From a virus (taxonomy: Duplodnaviria; Heunggongvirae; Uroviricota; Caudoviricetes): 22,057 bases of DNA. Of the stretch, positions 1-21,769 are shown in pieces. Numbering within the stretch: position 1 is the first letter of the stretch; each line of letters starts with the position of its first letter. The notes below the pieces were generated by a model. It was not told the DNA's origin, searched no databases, and saw only the letters and a program-made list of their open reading frames with translations. The stretch is from IMG/VR virus record IMGVR_UViG_2740892443_000002; one strand, given 5' to 3'. The translations under genes were made by a program, and so were the position numbers.

Positions 1-1032
1 TCAAAAACTTGCTATTGATGTTGGTAGTGTTGCCAGCGGATTAAACCGTAATGCAGTTTCTAGGTGATCCGGTGCTAGATGTGCGTAACGCATAGTCATT
101 TTTATGTCGTGATGTCCGAGGATTTTTTGCAAAGCAAGGATATTTCCACCCGACATCATAAAATGCGCCGCAAACGTATGGCGCAGAACGTGTGTCAGTT
201 GACCGCGAGGGAGCACGATAGACGTTTTTTCCATCACGGATAAAAATTGAAAATAGCAGTCTGTGAAGAAATTGAACCCATCGAGCGCCATGATCTCTTC
301 GTAAAGCTCTTTACTGATAGGGATGCTTCTGTTTTTCTTCCCCTTCGTTCTGACAAAGGTAATTCGGTATTTGGTCACCTGTGAGCGGGTAAGGTTTATT
401 GCTTCTCGCCAGCGTGCGCCTGTGCTTAAGCATATCTTGACTACCAGTGCCAGAATTGGGTCCTGACGTTTGCAATCATCCAGCAGTTCAACAATCTGCT
501 CATGGGTAAGCCATGCCATCTCTTTTTCTGCGATGGTGAATTTTCGCATGTTCTCCAGTGGGTTTGGATACGACCATTCGCCCAGGCGGGATAGTTCGCT
601 AAAAACACTACTTAGATAGCTTTGCTCCAGGTTAATGGTGACCGGGCTGGCCCCTTTCTTCCATTTCTCGCTGAAGTAGATCTCACCTGTCAGTCGTTTA
701 TCTCGATAATGGGCAAACATTTTAGATGTGAGATCGGTTGCAAGGGGATTGCCCAGAGCGTCAACCATCAGCAGCAATTTGTCATAGACATGCTGCCCAG
801 CAGTCAGAGATTTACCATGTAGTTTGAACCATAGCTCAACCACGTCTTTCAGGGTTCGACGATCTACTGATTCGCCCAGCCAGGGCTTTGCTTCGGTTTC
901 TTCCATCGTATGACGCTCAAAAGCCAGTGCTTCGCCTTTGGTGGCGAATTGTTTACGCACACGACGCCCACTACGTCCGGCGGGGTAACATTCGCAAAGC
1001 CATTTTCCTGTGGTGAGTTTTCGTACTGCCAT
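1..1032 (-). CDS. int: Tyrosine integrase, P2/186 type (343 aa from ATG at 1030-1032; stop at 1-3)
   Basis: ORF translation starting MAVRKLTTGKW... parallels remembered P2 Int N-terminus (MAIKKLDDGRYEVD...RKF..K.EA.AFE) and has the C-terminal catalytic region (LRHTFAAHF...MRYAHL) typical of tyrosine recombinases. The ORF-track start upstream is probably a non-ATG artefact. Confidence 0.9.
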   Translation of the reverse strand: MAVRKLTTGKWLCECYPAGRSGRRVRKQFATKGEALAFERHTMEETEAKPWLGESVDRRTLKDVVELWFKLHGKSLTAGQHVYDKLLLMVDALGNPLATDLTSKMFAHYRDKRLTGEIYFSEKWKKGASPVTINLEQSYLSSVFSELSRLGEWSYPNPLENMRKFTIAEKEMAWLTHEQIVELLDDCKRQDPILALVVKICLSTGARWREAINLTRSQVTKYRITFVRTKGKKNRSIPISKELYEEIMALDGFNFFTDCYFQFLSVMEKTSIVLPRGQLTHVLRHTFAAHFMMSGGNILALQKILGHHDIKMTMRYAHLAPDHLETALRFNPLATLPTSIASF

Positions 1033-2374: not shown

Positions 2375-2884
2375 ATGTTTGATTACCAAGTTTCCAAACA
2401 TCCACATTTTGATGAAGCCTGTCGTGCATTTGCACTGCGCCACAATCTGGTGCAACTGGCAGAACGTGCAGGCATGAATGTGCAGATTCTGCGGAACAAG
2501 CTGAACCCAGCTCAGCCTCATTTATTAACCGCACCAGAAATCTGGCTGCTTACCGATCTGACTGAAGATTCAACGCTGGTAGATGGTTTTCTGGCACAGA
2601 TTCACTGCCTGCCATGTGTACCGATTAATGAGGTTGCAAAAGAGAAACTGCCGCATTACGTCATGAGCGCAACTGCAGAGATCGGACGTGTTGCAGCAGG
2701 TGCGGTATCTGGTGATGTAAAAACTAGTGCCGGTCGTCGTGATGCTATCAGCAGCATTAACTCTGTAACACGACTGATGGCGCTGGCTGCTGTTTCATTG
2801 CAGGCCCGTTTACAGGCTAATCCTGCGATGGCGAGTGCAGTTGATACCGTGATTGGCCTCGGTGCTTCATTCGGTTTGCTGTGA
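2375..2884 (+). CDS. cII: 186-type CII lysogeny-establishment activator (169 aa from ATG at 2375)
   Basis: Translation [24 protein letters not shown]...[25 protein letters not shown]... is near-identical in pattern to remembered 186 CII ([24 protein letters not shown]...), same length (169 aa). Confidence 0.85.
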
Positions 2885-2891
2885 GGTGCTT

Positions 2892-3092
2892 ATGCTGACG
2901 AAAGAACCATCATTTGCATCGCTGCTGGTAAAACAAAGCCCGGCAATGCACTACGGTCACGGCTGGATCATGGGTGAGGATGGTAAACGCTGGCATCCGT
3001 GCCGTTCACAAGATGAATTGCTGGCAGAACTATCTACGAAAAAACGGGGGAACAAATGGCTATTGAAGGCGCTGCGGCGACTGTTCCATTAA
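2892..3092 (+). CDS. Hypothetical early protein (66 aa)
   Basis: ATG at 2892 preceded by GAGGTG; sits where 186 carries fil/dhr-type small early genes, but no sequence-level recognition. Confidence 0.4.
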   Translation: MLTKEPSFASLLVKQSPAMHYGHGWIMGEDGKRWHPCRSQDELLAELSTKKRGNKWLLKALRRLFH

Positions 3093-3397
3093 GCCCCGGT
3101 GAACGCCTGAATGGACTTAATCACATAGCGGAATTAAGGGCAAAAGTTTTTGGCCTGAATATTGAGTCAGAGCTTGAGCGGTTTATTAAAGATATGCGTG
3201 ATCCACGGGATATCAATAACGAACAAAATAAACGAGCACTGGCAGCCATATTCTTTATGGCAAAAATTCCGGCTGAACGTCATAGCATCAGCATCAATGA
3301 GCTGACCACTGACGAAAAGCGGGAGTTGATTAAAGCAATGAATCATTTTCGTGCAGTGGTGAGCTTATTTCCCAGACGGCTAACCATGCCGAATTAA
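3056..3397 (+). CDS. Hypothetical early protein (113 aa)
   Basis: ORF with upstream GGGG purine tract, overlaps the previous ORF by 37 nt in another frame; same strand as the early operon. Function unknown. Confidence 0.45.
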   Translation: MAIEGAAATVPLSPGERLNGLNHIAELRAKVFGLNIESELERFIKDMRDPRDINNEQNKRALAAIFFMAKIPAERHSISINELTTDEKRELIKAMNHFRAVVSLFPRRLTMPN

Positions 3398-3464
3398 CCA
3401 ACTAATGAAATTAATGGCGTAAACCCGCCGAGCATCCCTTTATCTAAATTCAGGAGAATTGATT

Positions 3465-3698
3465 ATGCGTAATATTGAGATCCTCACGACTAAAACCGGA
3501 TCGGATGATGCAGGGCTTAATATTTTACTGACAGTGGCTCGTCTGGAAGAACGCCGGGCAAGGGCTGAAGCAATGGCAGCTCGCCTTGATAGCCTGGCGT
3601 GTCATATCTCATCCCGTCAGCTAAACCACGTGGAAGCAGCAGAACTACTGCGTGTAACTGCTGAAGCAATCCAGAACGAAGCGCAGGAGATCCACTAA
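3465..3698 (+). CDS. Hypothetical early protein (77 aa from ATG at 3465)
   Basis: AGGAG at 3453-3457 with 7-nt spacing to ATG 3465; the ORF-track start at 3459 is a TTG. Stop overlaps the next gene start (TAATG). Confidence 0.5.
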   Translation: MRNIEILTTKTGSDDAGLNILLTVARLEERRARAEAMAARLDSLACHISSRQLNHVEAAELLRVTAEAIQNEAQEIH

Positions 3699-3925
3699 TG
3701 GCTGATGCAATGGATCTCGTACAGCAGCGCGTTGAAGAAGAACGCCAGCGCCATATTCGTGCTGCCCGTGCCAAAACACCGGGCGTGTCTCGCGTGCTTT
3801 GTATTGAATGTGAAGCGCCAATTCCGCCAGCACGACGCCGCGCCATTCCGGGAGTGCAGCTTTGCATTACCTGCCAGGAAATCGCAGAGCTGAAAGACAA
3901 ACATTACAACGGAGGTGCTGTATGA
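3698..3925 (+). CDS. TraR/DksA-family C4 zinc-finger protein (75 aa)
   Basis: C-x2-C-x17-C-x2-C (CIECEAPIPPARRRAIPGVQLCITC) in a ~75 aa protein is the TraR/DksA zinc-finger signature, common in P2-like early operons. Translationally coupled to neighbours. Confidence 0.7.
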   Translation: MADAMDLVQQRVEEERQRHIRAARAKTPGVSRVLCIECEAPIPPARRRAIPGVQLCITCQEIAELKDKHYNGGAV

Positions 3926-4779
3926 GCACCATCCTGAAATGGGCGGGAAATAAAACCGCCATTATGTCCGAACTGAAAAAACACCTTCCTGCTGGCCCGC
4001 GACTGGTTGAACCTTTCGCGGGTTCCTGTGCTGTGATGATGGAGACGGATTACCCCAGCTATCTGGTTGCGGATATTAATCCTGATTTAATCAACCTCTA
4101 TAAAAAGGTTGCCGCTGATTGTGAATCGTTTATATCTCGCGCCAGAGTTTTATTTGAGATCGCAAACAGGGAGGTGGCTTATTACAACATAAGGCAGGAG
4201 TTTAATTACTCCACTGAAATTACTGATTTCATGAAAGCGGTATATTTCCTGTATCTCAATCGTCACGGTTACCGTGGTTTATGTCGCTATAACAAGAGCG
4301 GGCATTTCAACATTCCCTACGGTAATTATAAAAATCCGTATTTCCCTGAAAAAGAAATTCGCGCATTTGCAGAAAAGGCCCAGCGAGCAACGTTTATCTG
4401 CGCCAGCTTTGATGAAACGCTGGCGATGTTGAAGGCGGGGGATGTGGTGTATTGCGATCCGCCGTATGACGGTACGTTTTCCGGCTATCACACTGACGGC
4501 TTCACTGAAGATGACCAGTATCACCTGGCATCTGTTCTTGAACATCGGTCATCAGAAGGACATCCGGTCATTGTTTCTAACAGTGACACATCCCTGATCC
4601 GTTCGCTGTATCGCAATTTTACTCACCACTACATCAAGGCAAAACGCAGCATCGGTGTGGCAGCTGGCGAGGGTAAATCAGCAACAGAAATCATTGCTGT
4701 TTCCGGGCCGCGCTGCTGGGTGGGATTTGATTATTCGCGTGGCGTGGATAGTTCTGCCGTGTACGGAGTACGTGCATGA
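3922..4779 (+). CDS. dam: DNA N6-adenine methyltransferase, Dam family (285 aa from ATG at 3922)
   Basis: N-terminal LKWAGNK and FAGSCAV (AdoMet-binding motif I region) and catalytic DPPY ([10 protein letters not shown]) motifs read in the translation. ATGA overlap with both upstream and downstream genes. Confidence 0.85.
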
Positions 4780-7190
4780 GTCATGCCGATATGAACAACT
4801 GCTGCGGCTTTAACGAGGCTGCCGCAGCATTCTCATGGAACAGCCCGAAAAAGGCCATTAACCCTTATCTGGACCCGGCGGAAGTTGCGCCGGTTTCTAC
4901 GCTTTCAAACCTGATCACTCTGTACGCTGCCGATAACGAGCAGGAACAGTTGCGCCGCGAGACACTGAGTGATCAGGTCTGGGAGCGTTATTTCTTTAAT
5001 GAATCACGTGATCCTGTCCAGCGCGAAATGGAGCAGGATAAGCTCATTAGCCGGGCAAAGCTGGCGCATGAGCAGCAGCGTTTTAATTCAGACATGGTCA
5101 TTCTGGCGGACGTCAACGCCAAGCCTTCCCATATCAGCAAGCCGCTGATGCAACGTATTGAATACTTCAGCAGCCTGGGCAGGCCAAAGGCTTATTCCCG
5201 CTATTTACGTGAGACGATTAAGCCATGTCTGGAACGACTGGAGCATGTACGCGACAGTCAGCTATCTGCATCTTTTCGCTTTATGGCAAGCCATGAAGGG
5301 CTGGACGGCCTGCTGATCCTGCCTGAAATGAGTCAGGATCAGGTGAAACGCCTGTCCACCCTGGTAGCTGCGCATATGAGTATGTGCCTTGATGCAGCTT
5401 GTGGTGATTTGTATGCCACCGATGACGTTAAGCCAGAAGAAATCCGCAAGACATGGGAAAAGGTGGCAGCGGAAACCCTGCGTCTGGATGTCATCCCACC
5501 TGCGTTTGAGCAACTCCGTCGGAAAAGAAACCGCCGTAAACCCGTGCCCTATGAACTCATTCCGGGTTCGCTGGCGCGTATGTTGTGCGCCGACTGGTGG
5601 TATCGGAAATTATGGAAGATGCGTTGCGAATGGCGGGAAGAGCAGTTGCGCGCTGTTTGCCTGGTCAGCAAAAAAGCATCTCCTTATGTCAGCTATGAAG
5701 CCGTGATGCATAAACGTGAGCAGCGCCGTAAGTCGCTGGAGTTTTTCCGTTCTCATGAACTGGTGAACGAAGACGGCGACACGCTGGACATGGAGGATGT
5801 GGTAAACGCCAGCAGCAGCAACCCTGCGCATCGCCGCAATGAGATGATGGCCTGTGTTAAAGGTCTGGAGCTTATCGCGGAAATGCGCGGTGACTGCGCC
5901 GTTTTCTACACTATCACCTGTCCGTCGCGTTTCCATTCCACGCTAAATAACGGCAGACCAAACCCGACCTGGACAAACGCGACGGTAAGACAAAGCAGCG
6001 ATTATCTGGTCGGCATGTTTGCTGCATTTCGTAAGGCGATGCACAAAGCCGGGTTGCGCTGGTATGGCGTGCGGGTGGCTGAGCCGCATCATGATGGCAC
6101 AGTTCACTGGCACCTGTTGTGTTTCATGCGCAAAAAAGACCGCCGTGCCATCACTGCATTACTGCGTAAGTTTGCCATCCGTGAAGACCGCGAGGAGCTG
6201 GGCAATAACACTGGGCCGCGCTTTAAGTCTGAGTTGATTAACCCGCGCAAAGGAACGCCGACAAGCTACATCGCGAAATATATCAGTAAGAACATTGACG
6301 GTCGTGGTCTGGCTGGCGAGATCAGCAAGGAAACGGGTAAATCTCTGCGTGATAACGCTGAATACGTGAATGCCTGGGCGTCTCTGCATCGTGTTCAGCA
6401 ATTCCGCTTCTTTGGTATTCCGGGGCGTCAGGCTTACCGTGAACTTCGCTTGCTGGCTGGTCAGGCGGCAAGGCAACAGGGTGACAAAAAAGCAGGTGCG
6501 CCGGTACTGGATAACCCGCGTCTTGATGCCATTCTGGCTGCTGCTGATGCTGGTTGTTTTGCCACCTACATCATGAAGCAGGGCGGCGTACTGGTTCCCC
6601 GTAAATATCACCTCATCAGAACCGCTTATGAAATCAACGAAGAGCCGACCGCCTATGGCGATCACGGCATTCGTATTTATGGCATCTGGTCACCCATTGC
6701 AGAGGGCAAGATCTGCACTCATGCAGTGAAGTGGAAAATGGTTCGTAAAGCCGTTGACGTTCAGGAGGCGGCAGCCGACCAGGGCGCTTGCGCCCCTTGG
6801 ACTCGTGGCAATAACTGTCCCCTTGCTGAAAATTTGAACCAACAGGAGAAAGATAAATCAGCAGATGGGGATACCAGAACTGATATTACCTGCATGGATG
6901 ACAAGGAATTGCACGATTACCTGCACAATATGAGCAAAAAAGAGCGCCGGGAACTGGCAGCAAGATTACGCCTGGTTAAACCGAAACGGCGTAAAGACTA
7001 CAAACAGCGAATTACAGAGCATCAGCGTCAGCAGCTCGTCTATGAACTGAAGTCCAGAGGATTTGATGGCAGCGAGAAAGAGGTCGATTTGCTCCTTCGC
7101 GGTGGCAGTATTCCGTCAGGAGCAGGCCTGCGTATCTTCTATCGGAACCAGCGTTTGCAGGAAGATGATAAGTGGCGGAACCTGTATTAA
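4776..7190 (+). CDS. A: Rolling-circle replication initiator, P2 gpA family (804 aa)
   Basis: Large protein at the position of P2/186 gene A, with a paired-tyrosine motif YIAKYISK (nt 6265-6288; Y-x3-Y) as in P2 gpA / phiX174 gpA-type nicking endonucleases. Confidence 0.85.
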
Positions 7191-7282
7191 TTACGCGGGT
7201 TAACAATTCGTGCTCTTAATAATACCAGGCATATCAGGCTGATGAACGTAAAAAAACGTTTTACATCAGTAAGATTATTATA

Positions 7283-7302
7283 TACTGTAAATATAAACAG
7301 TG
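7283..7302. promoter_or_regulatory. LexA (SOS) box: TACTGTAAATATAAACAGTG (CTGT-N8-ACAG)
   Basis: Exact CTGT-N8-ACAG with AT-rich spacer, read at 7285-7300; overlaps a possible promoter (-35 TTTACA 7260-7265, 17-bp spacer, -10 TACTGT 7283-7288) about 45 bp upstream of the ORF at 7344. Confidence 0.6.
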
Positions 7303-7343
7303 TTTGTGCATACAGTATTGCTTGTGGTGTCATAGGAGGAAAG

Positions 7344-7532
7344 ATGCAGGACTATTTTTTGGAGTCTTTGAAGCTCCAGCGCATTGATTTTTTTCTTAAG
7401 CTTGTAGCGGCTAGTGAGTGTAGTGATGAAGAGAAGGGGCTGGCTCTGCAGTGGGTTTCTGAATTGACTGATGAACTCATGGCAAAAATCAGAAGCCACG
7501 AATACAACCGCTCAATGGATGTCATCAGCTGA
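7344..7532 (+). CDS. Small protein (62 aa) downstream of the LexA box; possibly the 5' part of a split tum-like antirepressor gene
   Basis: ATG at 7344 preceded by AGGAGG. The longer ORF-track start at 7242 would run through the LexA box and is rejected. Relationship to 186 tum is inferred from position and from the adjacent DinI-like gene. Confidence 0.5.
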   Translation: MQDYFLESLKLQRIDFFLKLVAASECSDEEKGLALQWVSELTDELMAKIRSHEYNRSMDVIS

Positions 7533-7542
7533 GGTGACTTTT

Positions 7543-7776
7543 ATGCGCATTGAAATAATGATCGATAAAGAGCAGAAGATTAGCCAGTCTACCCTGGACG
7601 CTCTGGAGTCCGAGCTTTACCGCAACCTGCAACCCATCTATCCCAAGACAGCTATCCGCATCCGTAAAGGGTCGGCAAACGGCGTTGAGCTGAGTGGCTT
7701 AAAGCTTGATGAAGACAAAACGCGGGTGATGGAAATTATGCAGCAGGTTTGGGAAGACGACAGCTGGCTGCACTAA
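7543..7776 (+). CDS. DinI-family protein (77 aa from ATG at 7543)
   Basis: Translation MRIEIMIDKEQKISQSTLDALESELYRNLQPIYPK...DEDKTRVMEIMQQVWEDDSWL aligns along its length with remembered E. coli DinI (MRIEVTIAK...AIDALAGELSRRIQYAFPD...KEDKQRISEILQETWESADDWF). GAGGTG at 7531-7536 precedes the ATG. Confidence 0.85.
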   Translation: MRIEIMIDKEQKISQSTLDALESELYRNLQPIYPKTAIRIRKGSANGVELSGLKLDEDKTRVMEIMQQVWEDDSWLH

Positions 7777-7849
7777 GGAACGTTCCTGATGTAAGAACTT
7801 GATTCTGACGTCAGCAAGGTTGAACAACGAGAGTAGCGAGGCGTTAGCC

Positions 7850-8110
7850 ATGGGTAAAAAAGACAGTAATCACCAGATTATTTATCGGGGCCAGGTGCTG
7901 GAACGGTTTACCCCTGGCGGCTGGGTCTTCTTTCAACGCCCAAAGGAGTGTGGCGGAGGTTTTTGGTTGGGCCGCACCTATGAAGACTGCTTCTGGCTTG
8001 AGCTGGAATTCCCCGTTTCGCTATATGACGGCCTGGAGTTTTTGATGGAAGTCACCAGGGTAGAGCAGAGAAGTGATGAGGTTGACGCGAATTATTCCCT
8101 GTTTGATTAA
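7850..8110 (+). CDS. Hypothetical protein (86 aa from ATG at 7850)
   Basis: GAGG at 7838-7841 about 8 nt before ATG 7850; ORF-track start at 7799 is TTG. No recognisable family. Confidence 0.45.
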   Translation: MGKKDSNHQIIYRGQVLERFTPGGWVFFQRPKECGGGFWLGRTYEDCFWLELEFPVSLYDGLEFLMEVTRVEQRSDEVDANYSLFD

Positions 8111-8158
8111 AAATGTATTAGCTTATAATGGAATACTATTTTTGCAGGTGGGGGCGCA

Positions 8159-8770
8159 ATGGATTTAGTCTTTAAAATTCTGGCTTCGTTGGGTGGGGTG
8201 TCTTTTGTTGCATCTGGCATATTTGTTTGGATCGGGAAAGTTTATTTAGAAAGATATAAGTCGCGGCTAAACAAAGATATTGCTGAATTTCAATCACAAC
8301 TGAGTGCAACTAATGAAAGAATAAAGGCTAAGTTAGACAATTCTGTTTATGTAACGAAAGCGTATTTTGATAAGGAGTTATCAGCATATAGTCTCATTTG
8401 GAATTCGATGTTTGAAACCAGAGAAAGCGTGCTTAAGCTGAGGCCTGCGCTGGATCATTTTGACCCCAACGAACCATTTGAAGAGAGAAAATTTAGAAGG
8501 TTGAAAGTTTTTTTCGATGCATTTAATACTTTTGTTACAAGTGTTGAGTCTAACAAACCGTTCATCTCACCAGAGGTTTATATAATCTTGGACCGTTTCC
8601 GGAAGGAATGCTTTTCAGAGTCAATATCGTTTCAGCATGGCGATCCAGAATTTGACTGGCAAAATTATTGGAAAGAGGCAGAGTTGAATCGTACAACCAT
8701 CATCAAGCTTTTTGATGAGACGTGTGATGCAATTCGAGACAGGATGCACACATTAACTGTGGTTACGTAG
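8159..8770 (+). CDS. Membrane-anchored protein (203 aa): one N-terminal transmembrane helix, coiled-coil-like segment, C-terminal domain of unknown function; cargo gene, candidate defence function
   Basis: Hydrophobic stretch ILASLGGVSFVASGIFVWIG near the N-terminus; AT-rich codon usage unlike the flanking prophage genes; own -10 TATAAT at 8124-8129 and a downstream hairpin terminator at 8862-8889. Confidence 0.7.
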   Translation: MDLVFKILASLGGVSFVASGIFVWIGKVYLERYKSRLNKDIAEFQSQLSATNERIKAKLDNSVYVTKAYFDKELSAYSLIWNSMFETRESVLKLRPALDHFDPNEPFEERKFRRLKVFFDAFNTFVTSVESNKPFISPEVYIILDRFRKECFSESISFQHGDPEFDWQNYWKEAELNRTTIIKLFDETCDAIRDRMHTLTVVT

Positions 8771-8861
8771 TTTTCCAAAAAGTCTCGATGCCCGCTTTGG
8801 CGATTGTGCATGTCTATGCCGCATGAATCCGCATGATCGTTTGAGGATCGTTTTAGCTGAG

Positions 8862-8889
8862 GCCCGCTAGGAATGGCGGGCTTTTGCTT
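8862..8889 (+). terminator. Intrinsic terminator candidate: GCCCGC-TAGGAATG-GCGGGC followed by TTTTGCTT
   Basis: 6-bp GC stem (8862-8867 / 8876-8881), 8-nt loop, T-rich tail 8882-8889; lies about 90 nt downstream of the 8159-8770 gene. Confidence 0.45.
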
Positions 8890-8930
8890 ATGTCATGCAG
8901 ACGCATGAAAACCACTACATAAAGCGGGCA

Positions 8931-8949
8931 GGCGTGGCGGGGATACGAG
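8931..8949 (+). other. cos-like site: GGCGTGGCGGGGATACGAG, resembling the 19-nt cohesive end of P2/186
   Basis: First 13 nt match the remembered 186 cos end GGCGTGGCGGGGA(AAGCAT), and the following GCGCGCT also parallels the remembered P2 left end. Orientation points toward Q as in P2. Remembered sequences are unverified. Confidence 0.45.
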
Positions 8950-9059
8950 CGCGCGCTCATGGTTGAATTAATGAAATTATGGTGTTAAATAGGCTAGCTT
9001 TTTAAGTCGTGAATATTCAATTTTTCAACTCATTTTTTTCATAGGGAGGAGTAATTGAC

Positions 9060-9758
9060 ATGGTTATGTTAGTGGATGACTGTCCACGATGTGGATCACA
9101 AAAAATAGCGTTTGATGTTAATGGGCTGAATTGCACTAGGGTTTACAATGCATTGGGCGGGGGTAAAACATACGAGTACGAGGTCTATTGTGTTTGCCGA
9201 GAGTGTCATAAAACGACAATGTTTCTTTGCAGACCTTTAACGAAAAATAAAACTTTAGATGGCTATAATTGGGAAAGTGGAATATTCGGCTTAAAGGAAG
9301 TTGCAGAGGTTGTTAGGCCTATATCACCGGCAGACTTAGCAGTAGAGGAGCCACCAGAGTTCTTACCTGAGCATATCAATAGTGCATATGAGGAAGGGGC
9401 GAAATGTTTGGCTATAGGTTGTTATAATGCAGCAGCAACCATGTTTAGGCTTTGCCTTGATTATGCCACAAAAGGACTTCTTCCTGATGGGGAGCAAGGG
9501 CCTGCGCAAAAAATAAGGAGAAGCCTAGGGTTAAGAATGGAGTGGTTATTTGATAATCATCTACTGCCTGAAGCTTTAAGGGAACTAGCTGAATGCGTTA
9601 AAGATGACGGAAATGATGGAGCGCATGAAGGTATTTTGGATAAAGCTGCTGCTGAGGATCTTGAAGATTTTACCTATCTTTTTTTAGAACGGCTTTACAC
9701 TGAACCTCAACGCCTTATCGAAGCCAAGACAAGGCGTGAACAAAGAAGAAACAAATAA
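9060..9758 (+). CDS. Zinc-ribbon protein with DUF4145/HEPN-like C-terminal domain (232 aa); cargo gene between cos and portal, candidate defence/abortive-infection effector
   Basis: N-terminal CPRCG...CVCRECH (C4 ribbon); C-terminal helical region ending ...LRELAECVKDDGNDGAHEG... resembles the GN-x-AH core that I recall for DUF4145. GGGAGGAG precedes the ATG; candidate promoter -35 TTGAAT 8963-8968 with TG-extended -10 TAAATA 8986-8991. AT-rich. Stop is 8 bp from the convergent Q stop. Confidence 0.7.
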   Translation: MVMLVDDCPRCGSQKIAFDVNGLNCTRVYNALGGGKTYEYEVYCVCRECHKTTMFLCRPLTKNKTLDGYNWESGIFGLKEVAEVVRPISPADLAVEEPPEFLPEHINSAYEEGAKCLAIGCYNAAATMFRLCLDYATKGLLPDGEQGPAQKIRRSLGLRMEWLFDNHLLPEALRELAECVKDDGNDGAHEGILDKAAAEDLEDFTYLFLERLYTEPQRLIEAKTRREQRRNK

Positions 9759-9766
9759 GTTCGGAA

Positions 9767-10801
9767 TTATTCTTCTGAAAGAATATAGGGCGTAAATTTA
9801 ATCACTTCTTCGCCCAGCCAGTCGTTCAGCTCTTGTAGCCTTTTTTGCAAGGGCGTTAATTCATTACGTACAAATACGCGACTGGCCTTCTCCACATCCC
9901 CAAACCCCCCGACATTATTAGGCATTATCCCCATCATTTGTGGCGGCACACGATGCGCCGCCATCATGTCGTCCCGGCTCACGTTCTTGATATTCAGGAA
10001 CTCATCCTTCGCCGCCACTTCTGACAACGGGATAATCTGAAGCCCGTCCTTTTTACCGTTAGGCGAGTACATAAACAGGTTACGGAAGTTACCAGGACCT
10101 TTGGCGCTTTTCATCGCATTGCGGAGGTTGTTCACATCTTCCTGGTTCTGCGCTGCATCGGTCATGTACATGATGAAGCCTGCATGACTGCCGTTAATGT
10201 AATACTTGCGGCGGAACAGCGTGGCGGACTCGTTGAGCAGAGCTGACGGAATGGCAGAAAGATAACCAGGCAGGCCGTAGATCTCCTGGTTGATGTCCGG
10301 TTCCATCAGATGAAAAATGTTGCATTTCGTGAACTGATACGGCTGCGTAGTCATGCCGTATTGCACAAACCAGTAGGTATCAAGGTCTAACCCGCGTCGG
10401 GTGTATTTTGCCAGTGCAGGCTCAAGGGCGATAACTTCACCGAAGCGGTTCGTGCGTTTCTCCAGGTAGGCGTTACCAAAAACCAGATAGTCCTGTACAA
10501 AACGCGAAAAAGCCTGCTGGCTGAGCAGCGGGTGAGGGATGTAGGTGCTGGTCAGAATGTTGCACTTCACTGCAATCGGTGAGCTGTGATGCACGGCGGC
10601 GCGGAAGGTTCGCGCCAGTCCGTCGAAACTCACAGGCGGCTCGTACCAACGATCCATCTGTACGCATTCCACATAGTCCAGCAGTTCGCGGCGGTCCAGA
10701 ACAGGAACGGGATCACCGAAGCTGAATGCTTCGGCTGAAGTCTGGCTTTTATGCTGGATCTGTTTCGTCGACGCAGCGCGGTTCTTCTTACTCTTTCCCA
10801 T
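9767..10801 (-). CDS. Q: Portal protein, P2 gpQ family (344 aa from ATG at 10799-10801)
   Basis: Size identical to P2 Q (344 aa), position and orientation next to cos and the large terminase gene as in P2; start overlaps the P stop (TGATG). Confidence 0.85.
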   Translation of the reverse strand: MGKSKKNRAASTKQIQHKSQTSAEAFSFGDPVPVLDRRELLDYVECVQMDRWYEPPVSFDGLARTFRAAVHHSSPIAVKCNILTSTYIPHPLLSQQAFSRFVQDYLVFGNAYLEKRTNRFGEVIALEPALAKYTRRGLDLDTYWFVQYGMTTQPYQFTKCNIFHLMEPDINQEIYGLPGYLSAIPSALLNESATLFRRKYYINGSHAGFIMYMTDAAQNQEDVNNLRNAMKSAKGPGNFRNLFMYSPNGKKDGLQIIPLSEVAAKDEFLNIKNVSRDDMMAAHRVPPQMMGIMPNNVGGFGDVEKASRVFVRNELTPLQKRLQELNDWLGEEVIKFTPYILSEE

Positions 10802-15272: not shown

Positions 15273-15367
15273 CAGAACGTGCCCCCGCGCACGGGCGGCA
15301 CGGGGTGGCGAAAGGCACTGCCACATCAACACCCCGTCCACCGCCCTCTATTTCAGGAGAAAGCAGC

Positions 15368-16867
15368 ATGAAGTTTGTTGCGCCAGAACAGGCACCGGAA
15401 CAGGCGGAAATCATCAGAAACACGCCGTTCTGGCCTGATGTGGACCTGTCGGAGTTTCGCAGTGTCATGCGCACTGACGGCACGGTGACGCAGCCGCGTT
15501 TAAAGCAGGTTGCGCTGGCTGCAGTGCTGGGGCCGCTGGCAGTGATCCGTCTGGGATTCTCTGTGCTGGGTATCAAAACGTTATCTTCCGTTACGGCAGC
15601 AGTAACTCGAACCAGCAGCGCGTTGTCCTGGCTGGCTGGCGCACCACTGGCACTGCTGCGACGCGGGCTTGCTTCATCGGGCAACGCCGCAGGTTTACTT
15701 ACTGCGCCGTTGTCGTCTTTGCGCCGCACGGCATCACTGACGGGAAATGTCCTGAAAACTGTAGCAGGTGCGCCGGTTGCACTTTTGCGGTCTGGATTAT
15801 CCGGTTTACGTGCTGTTGCTGTGATGTTTATGAATCCTCTGGCGGTACTGCGCGGTGGACTGGCCGCCGCAGGCACGGTGCTGCGAGTACTGGCATCTGG
15901 TCCACTGGCGATGCTGCGCGTTGCCCTGTATGCCATATCTGGTCTGTTAGGTGCTCTGCTCAGTCCGATAGGTCTTGTGGTTACTGCACTGGCGGGCGTG
16001 GCGCTGGTTGTCTGGAAATACTGGCAACCCATCACCGCATTTCTCGGTGGCGTGGTGGAAGGATTCAAAGCGGCGGCAGGTCCCATCAGTGCAGCGTTCG
16101 AACCGCTTAAGCCCGTGTTCCAGTGGATTGGCGACAAAGTGCAGGCGCTGTGGGGCTGGTTTACTGATCTGCTGACGCCCGTTAAGTCGACCTCTGCCGA
16201 ACTGCAGAGCGCAGCGGCAATGGGGCGGCGATTCGGGGAGGCACTGGCGGAAGGGCTGAATATGGTCATGCATCCGCTGGACTCCCTGAAATCCGGCGTT
16301 TCCTGGTTGCTGGAGAAGCTCGGCATTGTCAGTAAAGAGGCCGCAAAGGCAAAACTGCCGGAAAGCGTGACGCGTCAGCAACCTGCGACGGTGAATGCAG
16401 ACGGTAAAGTGATGATGCCATCGGGTGGTTTTCCATCATGGGGATATGGCTTTGCGGGGATGTATGACAGCGGCGGGTATATCCCGCGCGGGCAGTTTGG
16501 CATCGTCGGTGAAAACGGGCCGGAAATTGTTAACGGCCCGGCAAATGTGACCAGCCGGAGAAATACAGCTGCACTGGCTGCCGTTGTTGCCGGAATGATG
16601 GGCGTTGCTGCCGCGCCAGCAGAGCTTCCACCGTTGCACCCTTTGGCACTTCCCGCGAAAGGTGGAGAAGCAATTGTGAGTCGCGCAGCCACTGTGCCGC
16701 TCGTTCAACGGATTGAGGCACCGACGCAGATCATCATTCAGACGCAGCCAGGACAAAGTGCGCAGGATATTGCGCGGGAGGTGGCACGCCAGCTTGATGA
16801 ACGTGAACGCAGGCTGAAGGCAAAAGCCAGGAGTAACTACAGCGATCAGGGGGGATACGACGCATGA
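15368..16867 (+). pseudogene. In-frame deletion remnant: 5' end of a head-completion (gpL-position) gene fused to the C-terminal part of a tail tape-measure (gpT-like) gene; 499 aa ORF
   Basis: ATG at 15368 with AGGAG at 15355-15359. N-terminal ~45 aa (MKFVAPEQAPEQAEIIRNTPFWPDVDLSEF...) is unlike what follows, which is Ala/Leu/Gly-rich repetitive sequence with a C-terminal ...GYIPRGQFGIVGENGPEIV... segment typical of tape-measure proteins. The ORF sits between M and U, where P2 has about 20 genes (L through T). Confidence 0.6.
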
Positions 16868-18990: not shown

Positions 18991-20676
18991 TTATCCTAAT
19001 CCTGGCCATACCATGACGATGATTGTCCCTGCCAGCGTCAGCAGGACGTTGGCGATTGCATAGGTGCCCGCATAGCCCAGCGCCGGGATGTTACTGCGAG
19101 CTGTATCACTGATGATCTCCATTGCCGGCGCGCAGGTACGTGCGCCCATCATTGCGCCGAACAACAGTGCGCGGTTCATTCGCAATACATAAGCACCGAA
19201 CAAGAAACAGATAACCACGGGCACCAGACTGACAATCAATCCGGCAATCAACATCTGACCGCCAATCGCGCCCAGGCCGTTATTAATACCGCTACCGGCG
19301 CTCAGACCAACGCCTGCCATAAACACCATCAAGCCGAACTCTTTCACCATGCTTAATGCACCTTGCGGAATGTAACCGAAGGTCGGGTGGTTAGCACGCA
19401 TAAAGCCCAGCATAATTCCGGCGAATAACAACCCGGCAGCGTTCCCCATGCCGAAACTGAATGTGCTGAACTGGAAGGTGATCATCCCGATCATCAGCCC
19501 AATAACAAAGAAGGCGCAAAATGCCAGCAGGTCAGTGACCTGGCTGTGAATCGAGATAAAGCCGATGCGATCGGCGATGGTTTTTACGCGACGGGCATCA
19601 CCGCTGACTTGTAAAACGTCACCTTTGTTAAGCACGACGTTGTCATCTATCGGCATCTCAATCTGGCTACGAATGACGCGGTTAAGGAAGCAACCGTGAT
19701 CGGTCAACTTCAGTTGTGCGAGACGTTTACCTACAGCGTTATGGTTTTTAACGACCACTTCTTCAGTGACGATACGCATGTCGAGAAGGTCACGATCGAA
19801 AACTTCTTTACCGTTACGGAAGCTGGGATCGAGTCGGGCATGGGCGTCGGGATAGCCTACCAACGCTATTTCATCGCCCATTTGTAGCACGGCATCACCG
19901 TCTGGATTTGCCAGAATCCCGTTACGTCGAATACGTTCAATGTAGCAGCCGGTTTGTCGATAAATACCCAGTTCACGCAGATTTTTGCCGTCGGTCCAGG
20001 CCACCAGCTCCGGGCCGACGCGATAGGCGCGGATCACCGGTAAATAAACCTTACGGTTGGCATCAGTGTCCAGGCCACGTTCGCGGGCGATTTGCTGGGC
20101 GCTGGTCTGTAAGTCCTGATGCTGCAATTTCGGCAAGTAACGCGCACCAACAATCAAACTCACCAGACCGATTAAATAGGTTAAGGCATACCCGAGGCTC
20201 AGATTATCCAGTGCCAGTGAGAGCTGCCTGCTTTCCATGCCGGAATGACGCAGTGTATCGCCAGCACCGACCAGAACCGGTGTCGACGTCATAGAGCCTG
20301 CTAACATACCGGCCGTCAGGCCAATATCCCAGCCAAACAGCTTACCTAACCCTAAGGCGATCACCAGCGCACTGCCAACCATCACCAGTGCTAACATTAG
20401 GTAATTTTTCCCATCGCGAAAAAAAATGGAAAAAAAGTTCGGTCCGGCTTCGACCCCGACGCAGAAAATAAACAGCATAAAGCCAAGATTAAGCGCATCG
20501 GTGTTAATGCTGAAATGTTGTTGGCCTAATAACAGCGATACGACTAAAACGCCAATGGAATTACCCAGTTGGATCGAACCAAGTCGTAACTTTCCGAGAC
20601 ATAGCCCAAGCGCGAGGACCACAAATAATAACAGAATGTAATTCCCATTTAACAATTCGGCGACGTTTATATTCAC
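18991..20676 (-). CDS. ybjL: Putative transporter YbjL (AspT/YidE/YbjL family, 561 aa)
   Basis: Translation [29 protein letters not shown]... and length 561 aa match what I recall of E. coli YbjL; multi-TM protein with central soluble domains. Confidence 0.9.
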
Positions 20677-20945
20677 GGAGGCTAACTTCTTGTTTACTAG
20701 TAAGCTGTTGAAAGAAATGGTAATTTACGATAATGTTTTTTACCAGAATTCAGGGCGCAGATTCATTCAGCGCACCTAAACGATAGTAAAGTAACAATAT
20801 ATTTTACTAGTGTAATCACATTAGGTATCAACGGCTATATGAATTGCGTTGGCCTATATTAGCATGGAATGCGAAGCGGCTTTATCTTACTGAACGCCAC
20901 ACTGGCGAAAAATGTGTTCGATAGACGCAGTGTCAGGAGGAACGA

Positions 20946-21323
20946 GTGAAACATAAACAACGTTGGGCGGGGGCAATCTGCTGTTTTGTCCTCTTCATTG
21001 TGGTGTGCCTTTTTCTGGCGACGCACATGAAAGGCGCTTTTCGGGCTGCCGGGCATCCTGAAATCGGCTTGCTATTTTTCATTCTTCCTGGAGCAGTGGC
21101 CAGCTTCTTTTCACAGCGTAGAGAAGTCCTGAAACCTCTGTTTGGCGCAATGCTGGCGGCACCCTGTTCGATGCTCATTATGCGGCTGTTTTTTTCACCG
21201 ACGCGCTCATTCTGGCAAGAGCTGGCATGGTTACTAAGCGCGGTGTTCTGGTGTGCGCTGGGGGCACTGTGTTTCTTATTTATCAGTAGTTTGTTTAAAC
21301 CACAGCACAGAAAAAATCAGTAA
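20946..21323 (+). CDS. ybjM: Inner-membrane protein YbjM (125 aa, GTG start)
   Basis: Conserved E. coli gene order ybjL-ybjM-grxA-ybjC-nfsA; 125 aa hydrophobic protein; AGGAGG at 20935-20940 before GTG 20946. Confidence 0.8.
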   Translation: MKHKQRWAGAICCFVLFIVVCLFLATHMKGAFRAAGHPEIGLLFFILPGAVASFFSQRREVLKPLFGAMLAAPCSMLIMRLFFSPTRSFWQELAWLLSAVFWCALGALCFLFISSLFKPQHRKNQ

Positions 21324-21343
21324 AGCCCTCAACGCGAGGGCTT
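21323..21343. terminator. Hairpin between convergent ybjM and grxA (AAGCCCTC-AACGC-GAGGGCTT), possible bidirectional terminator
   Basis: 8-bp stem read directly; T-run on the minus strand is a few nt from the stem (plus 21311-21316 AAAAAA), none on the plus strand, so weak. Confidence 0.35.
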
Positions 21344-21352
21344 GTCAGACGA

Positions 21353-21610
21353 TCAGGCGTCCAGATTTTCTTTCACCCATGCAGCAAAATCGGTATAGCC
21401 GCCGATATGTTGCTGATCGACAAAAATCTGCGGCACGGTTTCTACGGGTTTACCTGCCTTTTGTTGTAGATCTTCTTTAGTGATCCCTTCCGCACGAATA
21501 TCTACATACTGATACTGAAAATCATCGCGTTCATTGCTCAATTTCTCAGCCAGATCTTTTGCACGCACACAGTAAGGGCAACCCGAACGACCAAAAATAA
21601 CGGTTTGCAT
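21353..21610 (-). CDS. grxA: Glutaredoxin 1 (85 aa from ATG at 21608-21610)
   Basis: Translation MQTVIFGRSGCPYCVRAKDLAEKL... with the CPYC active site matches remembered E. coli GrxA; the ORF-track start 5 codons upstream is not used. Confidence 0.9.
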   Translation of the reverse strand: MQTVIFGRSGCPYCVRAKDLAEKLSNERDDFQYQYVDIRAEGITKEDLQQKAGKPVETVPQIFVDQQHIGGYTDFAAWVKENLDA

Positions 21611-21769
21611 TATTTCTCTCCTCATAGATTTATGCCTGTAATGATCACGCTAAAATGTATTCGCTGAAAGTAGGTTTAACCTGTTGCATTAATTGCTAAA
21701 AGCTATAACTGTTAAACACAATACAGTGAAAAGTTTTAGACTGAAGGCTCACTTTGCAGAGGGAAGCGT

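Follow-up and report, generated by a model that had tools for sequence, protein, structure and literature searches.

A candidate zinc-finger HEPN defence protein, distantly related to RAZR/PD-T7-4, in the cos-to-portal slot of P2-like prophages

PD-T7-4 was recovered by functional selection from Escherichia coli UMB1727 and described as 'Zn finger-HEPN' (Vassallo 2022, PMC9519451). It has since been renamed RAZR, for ring-activated zinc-finger RNase (Zhang et al. 2026, Nature, PMC13017515). RAZR (E. coli UMB1727 RRL46918.1; PDB 9Y9C/9Y6U) consists of an N-terminal Cys4 zinc-finger domain (ZFD), a conserved linker, and a DUF4145 domain; the ZFD is the sensor and determines specificity, and the DUF4145 domain is a divergent HEPN RNase (PMC13017515). 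The protein alone is non-toxic, but it forms a 24-mer around phage rings of ~170 Å (an Erf-like recombinase or the portals of T7, T3, and SECphi18), and ring-bound RAZR cuts single-stranded RNA (ssRNA) non-specifically, leading to aborted infection (PMC13017515). R146 and H154 are essential, as R146A and H154A abolish defence, and the ZFDs are highly variable among homologues yet still sense rings (PMC13017515). DUF4145 is a HEPN family for which zinc-ribbon fusions and defence contexts are on record (PMC3710099). Here, we describe an open reading frame (ORF) that lies between cos and the portal gene of a P2-like prophage in a 22,057-nucleotide (nt) stretch of DNA (IMG/VR record IMGVR_UViG_2740892443_000002; hereafter, the window). 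The ORF product is probably an abortive-infection effector of the zinc-finger plus HEPN class that would act against phages as a single protein, prophage-borne, constitutively expressed, and distantly related as a sister to RAZR/PD-T7-4; the defence role itself is what we infer from the comparisons below.

In the PADLOC analysis, the sole match of the ORF product was PD-T7-4 (E 1.2e-6), and all 30 aligned relatives matched PD-T7-4 and no other family, with a best E value of 3.6e-11. Sequence searches of the PDB with the single ORF sequence, a narrow family profile, or Gordonia gp1 returned no match. With a broader profile (A6), composed of divergent family members and distant phage homologues, the top PDB match was 9y9c_OA ('DUF4145 domain-containing protein', 219 amino acids [aa]), with an E value of 1.3e-5 over RAZR residues 37-191. 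Residue counting along this alignment reproduced the published positions T41, E43, A68-G69-N70, R146, H154, and D179-D180, and the identification of the chain as RAZR is therefore secure. The hhalign comparison gave a probability of 96.4% against the recovered RAZR fragment and of 97.3% (E 2.7e-11) when the target was a profile built from 24 RAZR-clade proteins, where the alignment spanned the end of the linker and the HEPN domain. By BLASTP, the ORF product and RAZR were 26% identical over 136 aa. Residues K181/N185/H189 of the ORF product aligned with R146/N150/H154 of RAZR, and E112 and R130 aligned with the invariant RAZR residues E88 and R105. An exhaustive HMMER search recovered 927 clusters at 50% identity with E<=1e-3, including 137 with E<=1e-30; therefore, the ORF is no chance reading frame.

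The features of the ORF and its product are as follows.

9060..9758, + strand: ORF with an ATG start, encoding 232 aa
9060..9230, + strand: Cys4 zinc ribbon, residues 1-57
9231..9344, + strand: hypervariable insert (residues 58-95) that separates the zinc ribbon from the linker
9345..9704, + strand: linker motif PPEFLPE (residues 98-104; conserved as PPExLP) and DUF4145/HEPN domain (residues 96-215)
9600-9602, 9612-9614, and 9624-9626: putative active-site residues K181, N185, and H189
9705..9758, + strand: basic C-terminal tail, residues 216-232 (...RREQRRNK), and stop codon

The zinc knuckles are C8-P-R-C11 (9081-9092) and C46-R-E-C49 (9195-9206), whose four cysteines did not vary among the 30-43 relatives aligned and occurred in 223-233 of the 237 family sequences. 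The matches of this ribbon to the zinc ribbons of RPA12, Rpb9, and L33 were weak and non-significant. We infer that the N-terminal Cys4 ribbon is the core of the sensor domain. The mean pairwise identity of the insert was 0.23 in the family and 0.44 among the alleles of the P2 slot, compared with 0.68 and 0.80, respectively, for the HEPN domain, and the sensor region showed mean identities of 0.35 and 0.51. In the RAZR clade, the corresponding values were 0.47 for the ZFD and 0.87 for the HEPN domain. The two-speed evolution of the family, with a variable sensor and a conserved effector, matches that of RAZR.

The C-terminal domain matched Pfam DUF4145 (PF13643) with an E value of 4.5e-7 and 30.3 bits, against a gathering cut-off of 23.1, and residues 114-203 were aligned to profile positions 4-82 of 88. 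E112 was present in all 237 family sequences, H189 in 233, and N185 in 229, and both E112 and R130 were near-invariant. Position 181 was lysine in 157 of the family sequences and arginine in 67; therefore, the lysine in the clade of the ORF is probably a conservative replacement of the canonical HEPN arginine at the predicted catalytic position. With K181, this position keeps its positive charge in the ORF product and in 157 relatives, and H189 and N185 are conserved. The motif spacing is R-x4-6-H in canonical HEPN domains and R-x3-N-x3-H (R-x7-H) in both RAZR and the ORF family. In the basic tail, R225, R226, and R229 were conserved. As a separate observation, the HEPN domain contains four more cysteines, C116 (9405-9407), C121 (9420-9422), C132 (9453-9455), and C179 (9594-9596), which were highly conserved (198-224 of 237 family sequences). 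None of them aligned with a RAZR cysteine, C132 and C179 being one position off RAZR C107 and C145, and they could represent a second metal site or a redox-sensitive feature.

An earlier note on this DNA, made from the sequence alone, had read the protein as a C4 zinc ribbon joined to a DUF4145/HEPN-like domain with the GNDGAH motif as its active-site region. The (near) invariance of C8, C11, C46, and C49, the Pfam score, and the domain calls support all three points. The note had held that the lack of a DUF4145/HEPN match would count against its proposal, and the match found lies above the cut-off. However, the note could match the protein to no named system and called it undescribed, and this did not hold, as the ORF product is a detectable distant homologue of PD-T7-4 (2022)/RAZR (2026), and the exact protein, WP_000245245, was already listed in Table S5 of Rousset et al. 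2022.

The P2 gpA-gpQ slot is an established defence hotspot with validated systems (PMC9122126; PMC9519451). In Table S5 of Rousset et al. 2022 (PMC9122126), WP_000245245 appears 17 times among the P2-hotspot cassettes, and one entry is the five-protein string found in E. coli LF82; the main text of that study contains no report of testing this protein. PD-T7-4, RAZR, and DUF4145 are absent from the main text of a later P2-hotspot survey (PMC13586616). Of 5,426 complete E. coli genomes, 46 carried the ORF, each in one copy on the chromosome, whereas the cos segment was conserved in 1,270 E. coli genomes, and the ORF is therefore accessory and not core. Diverged alleles (70-81% nucleotide identity) fill exactly the same slot, and the gpA-side cargo beside them is absent, two hypothetical proteins, or a DUF2971 protein. 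The identical allele co-occurs with at least three different gpA-side cargos, related prophages hold other cargo instead, such as an AIPR-family protein, and one prophage without the ORF carries ~610 bp with an 89-aa ORF between cos and the portal gene. The survey of 60+ loci spanning many phyla turned up no conserved partner gene, and the check for a HEPN-MNT module revealed no adjacent co-oriented partner in the window and no recurrent nucleotidyltransferase across these 60+ loci. The ORF is an optional, self-contained cargo of the cos-to-portal slot in the P2 hotspot.

Outside P2-like elements, the neighbours of the family included TIR, KAP NTPase, ThsB-like, type II methyltransferase, DRT-associated, QatA, and HepT-like genes, along with integrases, transposases, and also housekeeping genes. 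Among the homologue loci in IMG/VR, 49 of 80 had a P2-type portal gene immediately downstream and convergent, including distant Peduoviridae whose portal and gpA are 62-67% and 29-39% identical, respectively, to those of the window. The remaining loci were in Mu-like (gemA/mor), inovirus (Zot), integrase, or other contexts. Portal or packaging adjacency was considered as a general property of the family and rejected, because it is limited to P2-like phages (49/80) and one Gordonia phage; portal adjacency is thus a property of the P2 slot and not of the family.

Several homologues in other phages were recorded in the same survey. In Gordonia phage Meyran (L005), an actinophage unrelated to the window, a homologue with 27% identity at 94-783 (+) covers PD-T7-4 model positions 7-179 and is likewise gene 1, located between the cohesive end, which it directly follows, and the gene for the small terminase. 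Burkholderia phage phiBt-TXDOH (L004) carries an unannotated homologue at 2737-3636 (+) with 32% identity and a canonical ...RLDGNDALHE... motif; the record annotates the opposite-strand overlapping ORFs BtTXDOH_26 and BtTXDOH_27 there, so that this region is probably mis-annotated. Four Mu-like IMG/VR contigs (L148, L150, L156, and L157) contain a homologue with 39% identity at ~3400-5200, apparently between gemA-like and mor-like genes. These contigs appear to represent a second recurrent phage slot, with the gemA/mor placement drawn from recurrent ORF sizes, as the Pfam scan gave family counts only (GemA 3, Mor 3) without assignment to proteins. Some P2 hotspots carry a DUF2971 protein on the gpA side and a DUF4145 allele on the portal side (L009 2615-3733; Rousset Table S5). 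The DefensePredictor tables list a validated construct '2971' (DS-45) and, among the predictions, a 372-aa DUF2971 protein (PMC13092281); going by the name only, our guess is that DS-45 is this 372-aa protein, and such hotspots may carry two independent defence genes flanking cos.

The signals and genes flanking the ORF are as follows.

8859..8889, + strand: terminator-like hairpin and U-tract where the gpA-side cargo ends, immediately ahead of cos
8899..8957: cos region, with the 19-mer GGCGTGGCGGGGATACGAG at 8931-8949 inside
8958..9059, + strand: upstream region that moves together with the ORF and carries a conserved block and the Shine-Dalgarno sequence
9046-9053, + strand: Shine-Dalgarno sequence GGGAGGAG, 6 nt ahead of the ORF ATG
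9759..9766: 8-bp spacer between the convergent stop codons
9767..10804, - strand: portal gene (gpQ), convergent with the ORF (Pfam Phage_portal, E 8.6e-19; RefSeq annotation in LF82)

Escherichia phage Cartapus is a P2-like (Peduoviridae) prophage of E. coli LF82, and its gene 1 product is identical to the ORF product. Window positions 8899-8957 correspond to positions 1-59 of the Cartapus record, which are annotated as 'putative cos site' with homology to P2 cos, and window position 9060 corresponds to position 162 of that record. The homology of the cos segment among the 1,270 genomes ends at about window 8957-8962, and the stretch at 8958..9059 was common to only 38 genomes. In the alignment of nine alleles, a conserved block lies just after cos at ~8961-8992, GGTTGAAT ... 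TGGTATCAAA-like, which on this conservation may be a non-consensus promoter. The scan for a sigma-70 consensus upstream of the ORF on the + strand found no site. The TAGGAGG-type Shine-Dalgarno sequence was kept in the aligned diverged alleles. The fold of the upstream hairpin (8850-8895) had a dG of -22.9 kcal/mol and a z score of -4.08, with 0/200 shuffles as good; the stem is followed by UUUUGCUU, and the hairpin arm GGCGGGCTTTTGC is present in the diverged allele L007 too. This hairpin would shield the ORF from upstream transcription.

The GC content of the ORF was 0.40-0.42, compared with 0.50-0.63 in the portal/terminase region. Its stop codon TAA occupies 9756-9758, and the portal stop codon occupies 9767-9769, which leaves 8 bp between the convergent stops; this spacing was constant in all loci with the identical allele. 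The terminator scan found none between the ORF and the portal gene, and the RNA fold of 9735-9800 was no better than that of shuffled sequences (z 0.02). The portal gene is context and lies outside the system of the ORF. The outline given by the earlier note thus proved accurate for the 232-aa AT-rich ORF with its Shine-Dalgarno sequence and its 8-bp distance from the portal stop, for the cos-like site at 8931-8949, which falls within the cos annotated in Cartapus and kept in 1,270 genomes, and for the location in the P2 gpA-gpQ hotspot. Its candidate promoter found no counterpart in the sigma-70 scan, and the core-gene status that it had named as speaking against its view is not what the 46 carriers, set against 1,270 genomes with cos, show.

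Expression of the ORF in lysogens was assessed from the published RNA-seq data of strain LF82 (PMC9928086 S1 table). The log2(fpkm+5) value of LF82_788/CARTA_1, which is the ORF, was 4.7 in LB stationary phase, 7.0-7.6 in the conditions labelled B1 and B6, and 9.2-9.6 inside macrophages, whereas the convergent portal and terminase genes were at 2.3-3.1 in the same samples. Therefore, the ORF is transcribed in the lysogen while the neighbouring late genes are silent. All Cartapus hotspot genes (~window 7240-9758), DinI and the small hypothetical ORFs among them, were up 30- to 100-fold in macrophages relative to LB stationary phase (PMC9928086), which suggests regulated early-region or hotspot transcription in the LF82 lysogen. 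An independent promoter for the ORF is presumed, with indirect support from the block conserved after cos and from these RNA-seq data.

By homology with RAZR, the protein would be an inactive, harmless oligomer in the lysogen. Upon infection, the variable N-terminal domain would bind a protein assembly built by the phage; the RAZR precedents are rings of ~170 Å, for example portal dodecamers or the Erf-like recombinase. Binding would shift the paired HEPN domains to give an active RNase, whose non-specific cleavage of ssRNA would halt translation and abort the infection, and this abortion would shield the lysogen population and the prophage from competitor phages. The identity of the trigger and the requirement for a ring are, in our analysis, the least certain steps of the proposed mechanism, because the ZFD can be aligned with that of RAZR only at the two knuckles.

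Several points weigh against reading the ORF product as a sister of RAZR that acts in this way. The identity between the two proteins is 22-26% and is limited to the end of the linker and the HEPN domain. On the PADLOC PD-T7-4 model (PDLC04109), the ORF product scored 26.1 bits over residues 36-200 and model positions 39-165 of 211, whereas true RAZR-clade proteins scored 315-339 bits over positions 1-209. With two narrow profiles (A1 vs A7), hhalign gave a probability of only 52%, and when the ZFDs were compared by themselves, hhalign aligned the knuckles alone (12 columns at 68% and 8 columns at 48%). The RAZR oligomerisation residues D179/D180 aligned with E210/R211 of the ORF product, which were found in 169/237 and 184/237 family sequences, respectively; given this replacement, the higher-order assembly may differ from that of RAZR. 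The ORF and its clade carry lysine instead of the canonical arginine at the putative catalytic position, and the single-sequence AlphaFold2 model had a pLDDT of 39, with low-confidence helices over residues 104-230. In the transcriptome of LF82, the rise in macrophages was common to upstream hotspot genes such as DinI (PMC9928086 S1 table), and because these genes rise in parallel, read-through into the ORF is possible. Our literature search found no paper testing the family of the ORF. It is also awkward for a phage that builds a portal to carry a ring-triggered suicide RNase, unless the resident portal is ignored.

It is possible, although somewhat unlikely, that the same HEPN RNase effector is coupled to a different kind of sensing, responding, for instance, to nucleic acid, to a perturbation of the host, or to a phage protein in monomeric form, and would need no RAZR-style 24-mer. 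The alignment of the ZFDs only at the knuckles, the extra hypervariable insert of ~27 aa, the non-conservation of D179/D180, and the portal ring made by the carrier phage itself all favour such sensing, and the DefensePredictor authors concluded likewise for DS-38, of which the HEPN domain alone aligned with PD-T7-4. However, RAZR and the ORF product agree in ribbon position, linker motif, and domain order, the ZFDs of RAZR are themselves highly variable and still sense rings, and there is no positive evidence for another trigger. A more doubtful proposal is that the family is a separate lineage of trigger-assembled HEPN RNases, in which the enlarged ZFD senses other phage structures and the tail-to-tail linkage with the portal gene solves the problem of self and non-self. 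In P2-like phages, the ORF family is kept tail-to-tail 8 bp from the portal gene even at 62-67% portal identity. For such a lineage, late P-Q antisense transcription, or co-evolution of sensor and portal, would prevent self-activation during the phage's own lytic cycle; because no terminator intervenes, late P-Q transcription may run antisense through the ORF, which is speculation.

The remaining alternatives question the defence role. A moron serving host or prophage physiology, such as an RNase induced by stress or in macrophages or a toxin that stabilises the prophage, is improbable: the transcript increases ~30-fold from LB stationary phase to macrophages in adherent-invasive E. coli LF82, HEPN domains also occur in toxin-antitoxin modules (PMC3710099), and the ORF was kept in the deleted, defective prophage of the window, but the same induction was seen in neighbouring hotspot genes, no adjacent MNT or antitoxin-like partner was found in any context examined, and RAZR alone is non-toxic (PMC13017515). 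The slot also holds experimentally validated defence systems, and elsewhere the family neighbours TIR, KAP NTPase, ThsB-like, methyltransferase, and DRT-associated genes. We regard as very unlikely that the protein is a DNA-binding, regulatory, or packaging accessory of the phage. It contains a zinc ribbon, it matched phrog_1305 with the label 'DNA binding protein' (E 9.5e-53), and both Cartapus and Gordonia phage Meyran carry the gene as the first one past cos; against this, the PHROG label has no test behind it, the ORF is missing from ~96% of the E. coli genomes with the cos segment, the residues of the HEPN catalytic motif are invariant, and the family occurs widely outside phages and lies away from packaging genes in Mu-like phages and inoviruses. 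There is a similarly slight chance that the protein is a catalytically weakened HEPN decoy or anti-defence factor that, for example, poisons host RAZR by co-assembly so that the phage's own portal goes unpunished. The lysine in place of the canonical arginine in the ORF clade, the proximity to the phage's own portal gene, maintained in P2-like phages that have diverged deeply, and the occurrence of RAZR-clade proteins in the same enterobacterial hosts would fit a decoy. However, H189, N185, E112, and R130 are near-invariant and lysine retains the positive charge, arginine is present in one third of the family, most members are found outside P2-like phages, and the ORF is expressed in the lysogen and not with the late genes.

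If the ORF product is a ZF-HEPN abortive-infection effector related to RAZR, it bears on the principle established with RAZR, that immunity can be switched on by an immune protein assembling around a ring built by the phage. The family is large (927 clusters at 50% identity in many phyla) and combines the effector and layout of RAZR with a different sensor and a weak, partial match to PD-T7-4, and it could show the reach of ring-sensing and what else such sensors detect. The carrier phage builds its own portal ring, which raises the question of how self-activation is avoided. Expression in lysogens of the Crohn's-associated strain LF82, which is strong in macrophages, may influence which therapeutic phages can infect strains of this kind. 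The interest of the system would rise if its trigger proved unlike that of RAZR or if the portal arrangement proved to be a self-tolerance device.

The window contains further features of the prophage and its flank. On the gpA side of cos, an ORF at 8159-8770 (+) encodes a 203-aa product that contains a hydrophobic helix at its N-terminus as well as a coiled-coil-like region; it matched phrog_26391 (no assigned function) and no Pfam or PADLOC family. It corresponds to the LF82 'moron' LF82_789, which is expressed 7-fold over the prophage background, and is a separate candidate cargo gene of the hotspot. This ORF was considered as a partner of the DUF4145 gene and rejected, since it lies across cos and behind the terminator-like hairpin, it is absent at the loci of other alleles, and the identical DUF4145 allele pairs with other cargos. 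At 15305-16867 (+), a 520-aa in-frame fusion joins the N-terminal half of gpL (head completion) to the C-terminal part of the tail tape-measure protein. Lysis and tail genes amounting to ~14 kb are missing from the window prophage, which must therefore be defective but still carries the hotspot cargo. Similar deleted prophages of ~24 kb were found in strains FDN-11 and GPEC1240. Host genes at 18991-21625 encode a ybjL-type Asp-Al_Ex/TrkA_C transporter, YbjM, and glutaredoxin, and the right end of the prophage therefore lies at ~18.5-18.9 kb, adjoining ybjL.

Compared with other known systems, the ORF product shares single features with several. DefensePredictor reported DS-38 ('HEP2', WP_001313577.1), a validated single-protein E. 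coli defence (bioRxiv 10.1101/2025.01.08.631726; PMC13092281) that likewise has HEPN and zinc-finger domains and of which only the HEPN domain aligned structurally with PD-T7-4; DS-38 can thus be regarded as a precedent for ZF-HEPN variants with different sensor domains. The two proteins are not the same, as the DS-38 gene, at contig 8089-9189, encodes ~366 aa, and this length sets it apart from the 232-aa product of the ORF. BxaP (PMC10799925) has a DUF4145/HEPN-type domain and provides abortive-infection-like phage defence, but in BxaP the DUF4145 domain stands at the N-terminus, joined to a HEAT-like domain, and the protein is without a zinc ribbon and BREX-associated. The other cargo of the P2 gpA-gpQ hotspot (old, tin, DUF4238, DprA-PRTase, and others) is, like the ORF, cos-proximal, optional, lysogen-expressed, and swapped between prophages; however, those systems are unrelated to the ORF in sequence, and the ORF lies on the portal side of cos, whereas the other cargo in the window lies on the gpA side.

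The closest comparison is with RAZR. Both are single-gene systems borne on mobile elements of Enterobacterales, with the shared domain order of an N-terminal CPxC...CxxC ribbon, a linker, and a C-terminal DUF4145/HEPN domain. The knuckles C16PxC19/C49xxC52 of RAZR match C8PxC11/C46xxC49 of the ORF product in position, the linkers are proline-rich (ELPNPDMP in RAZR and EPPEFLPE in the ORF product), and the basic-x3-N-x3-H motif has the same spacing. They differ in that the ORF product has ~27 extra residues between the ribbon and the linker, as RAZR is without most of the hypervariable insert, and is 232 aa long compared with 208-221 aa. PD-T7-4 homologues are reported to overlap an integrase gene often (PMC9519451), whereas the ORF occupies the P2 cos-portal slot. 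Because of the low identity, the partial model match, the non-alignable ZFD, and the non-conservation of D179/D180, the ORF is treated here as a putative sister family inside the ZnR-DUF4145 superfamily and outside the RAZR clade. Single-gene defence by zinc-finger HEPN proteins and the cargo of the P2 hotspot are both known, and within them the ORF family appears, from its sequence relationships, to be a distinct variant.

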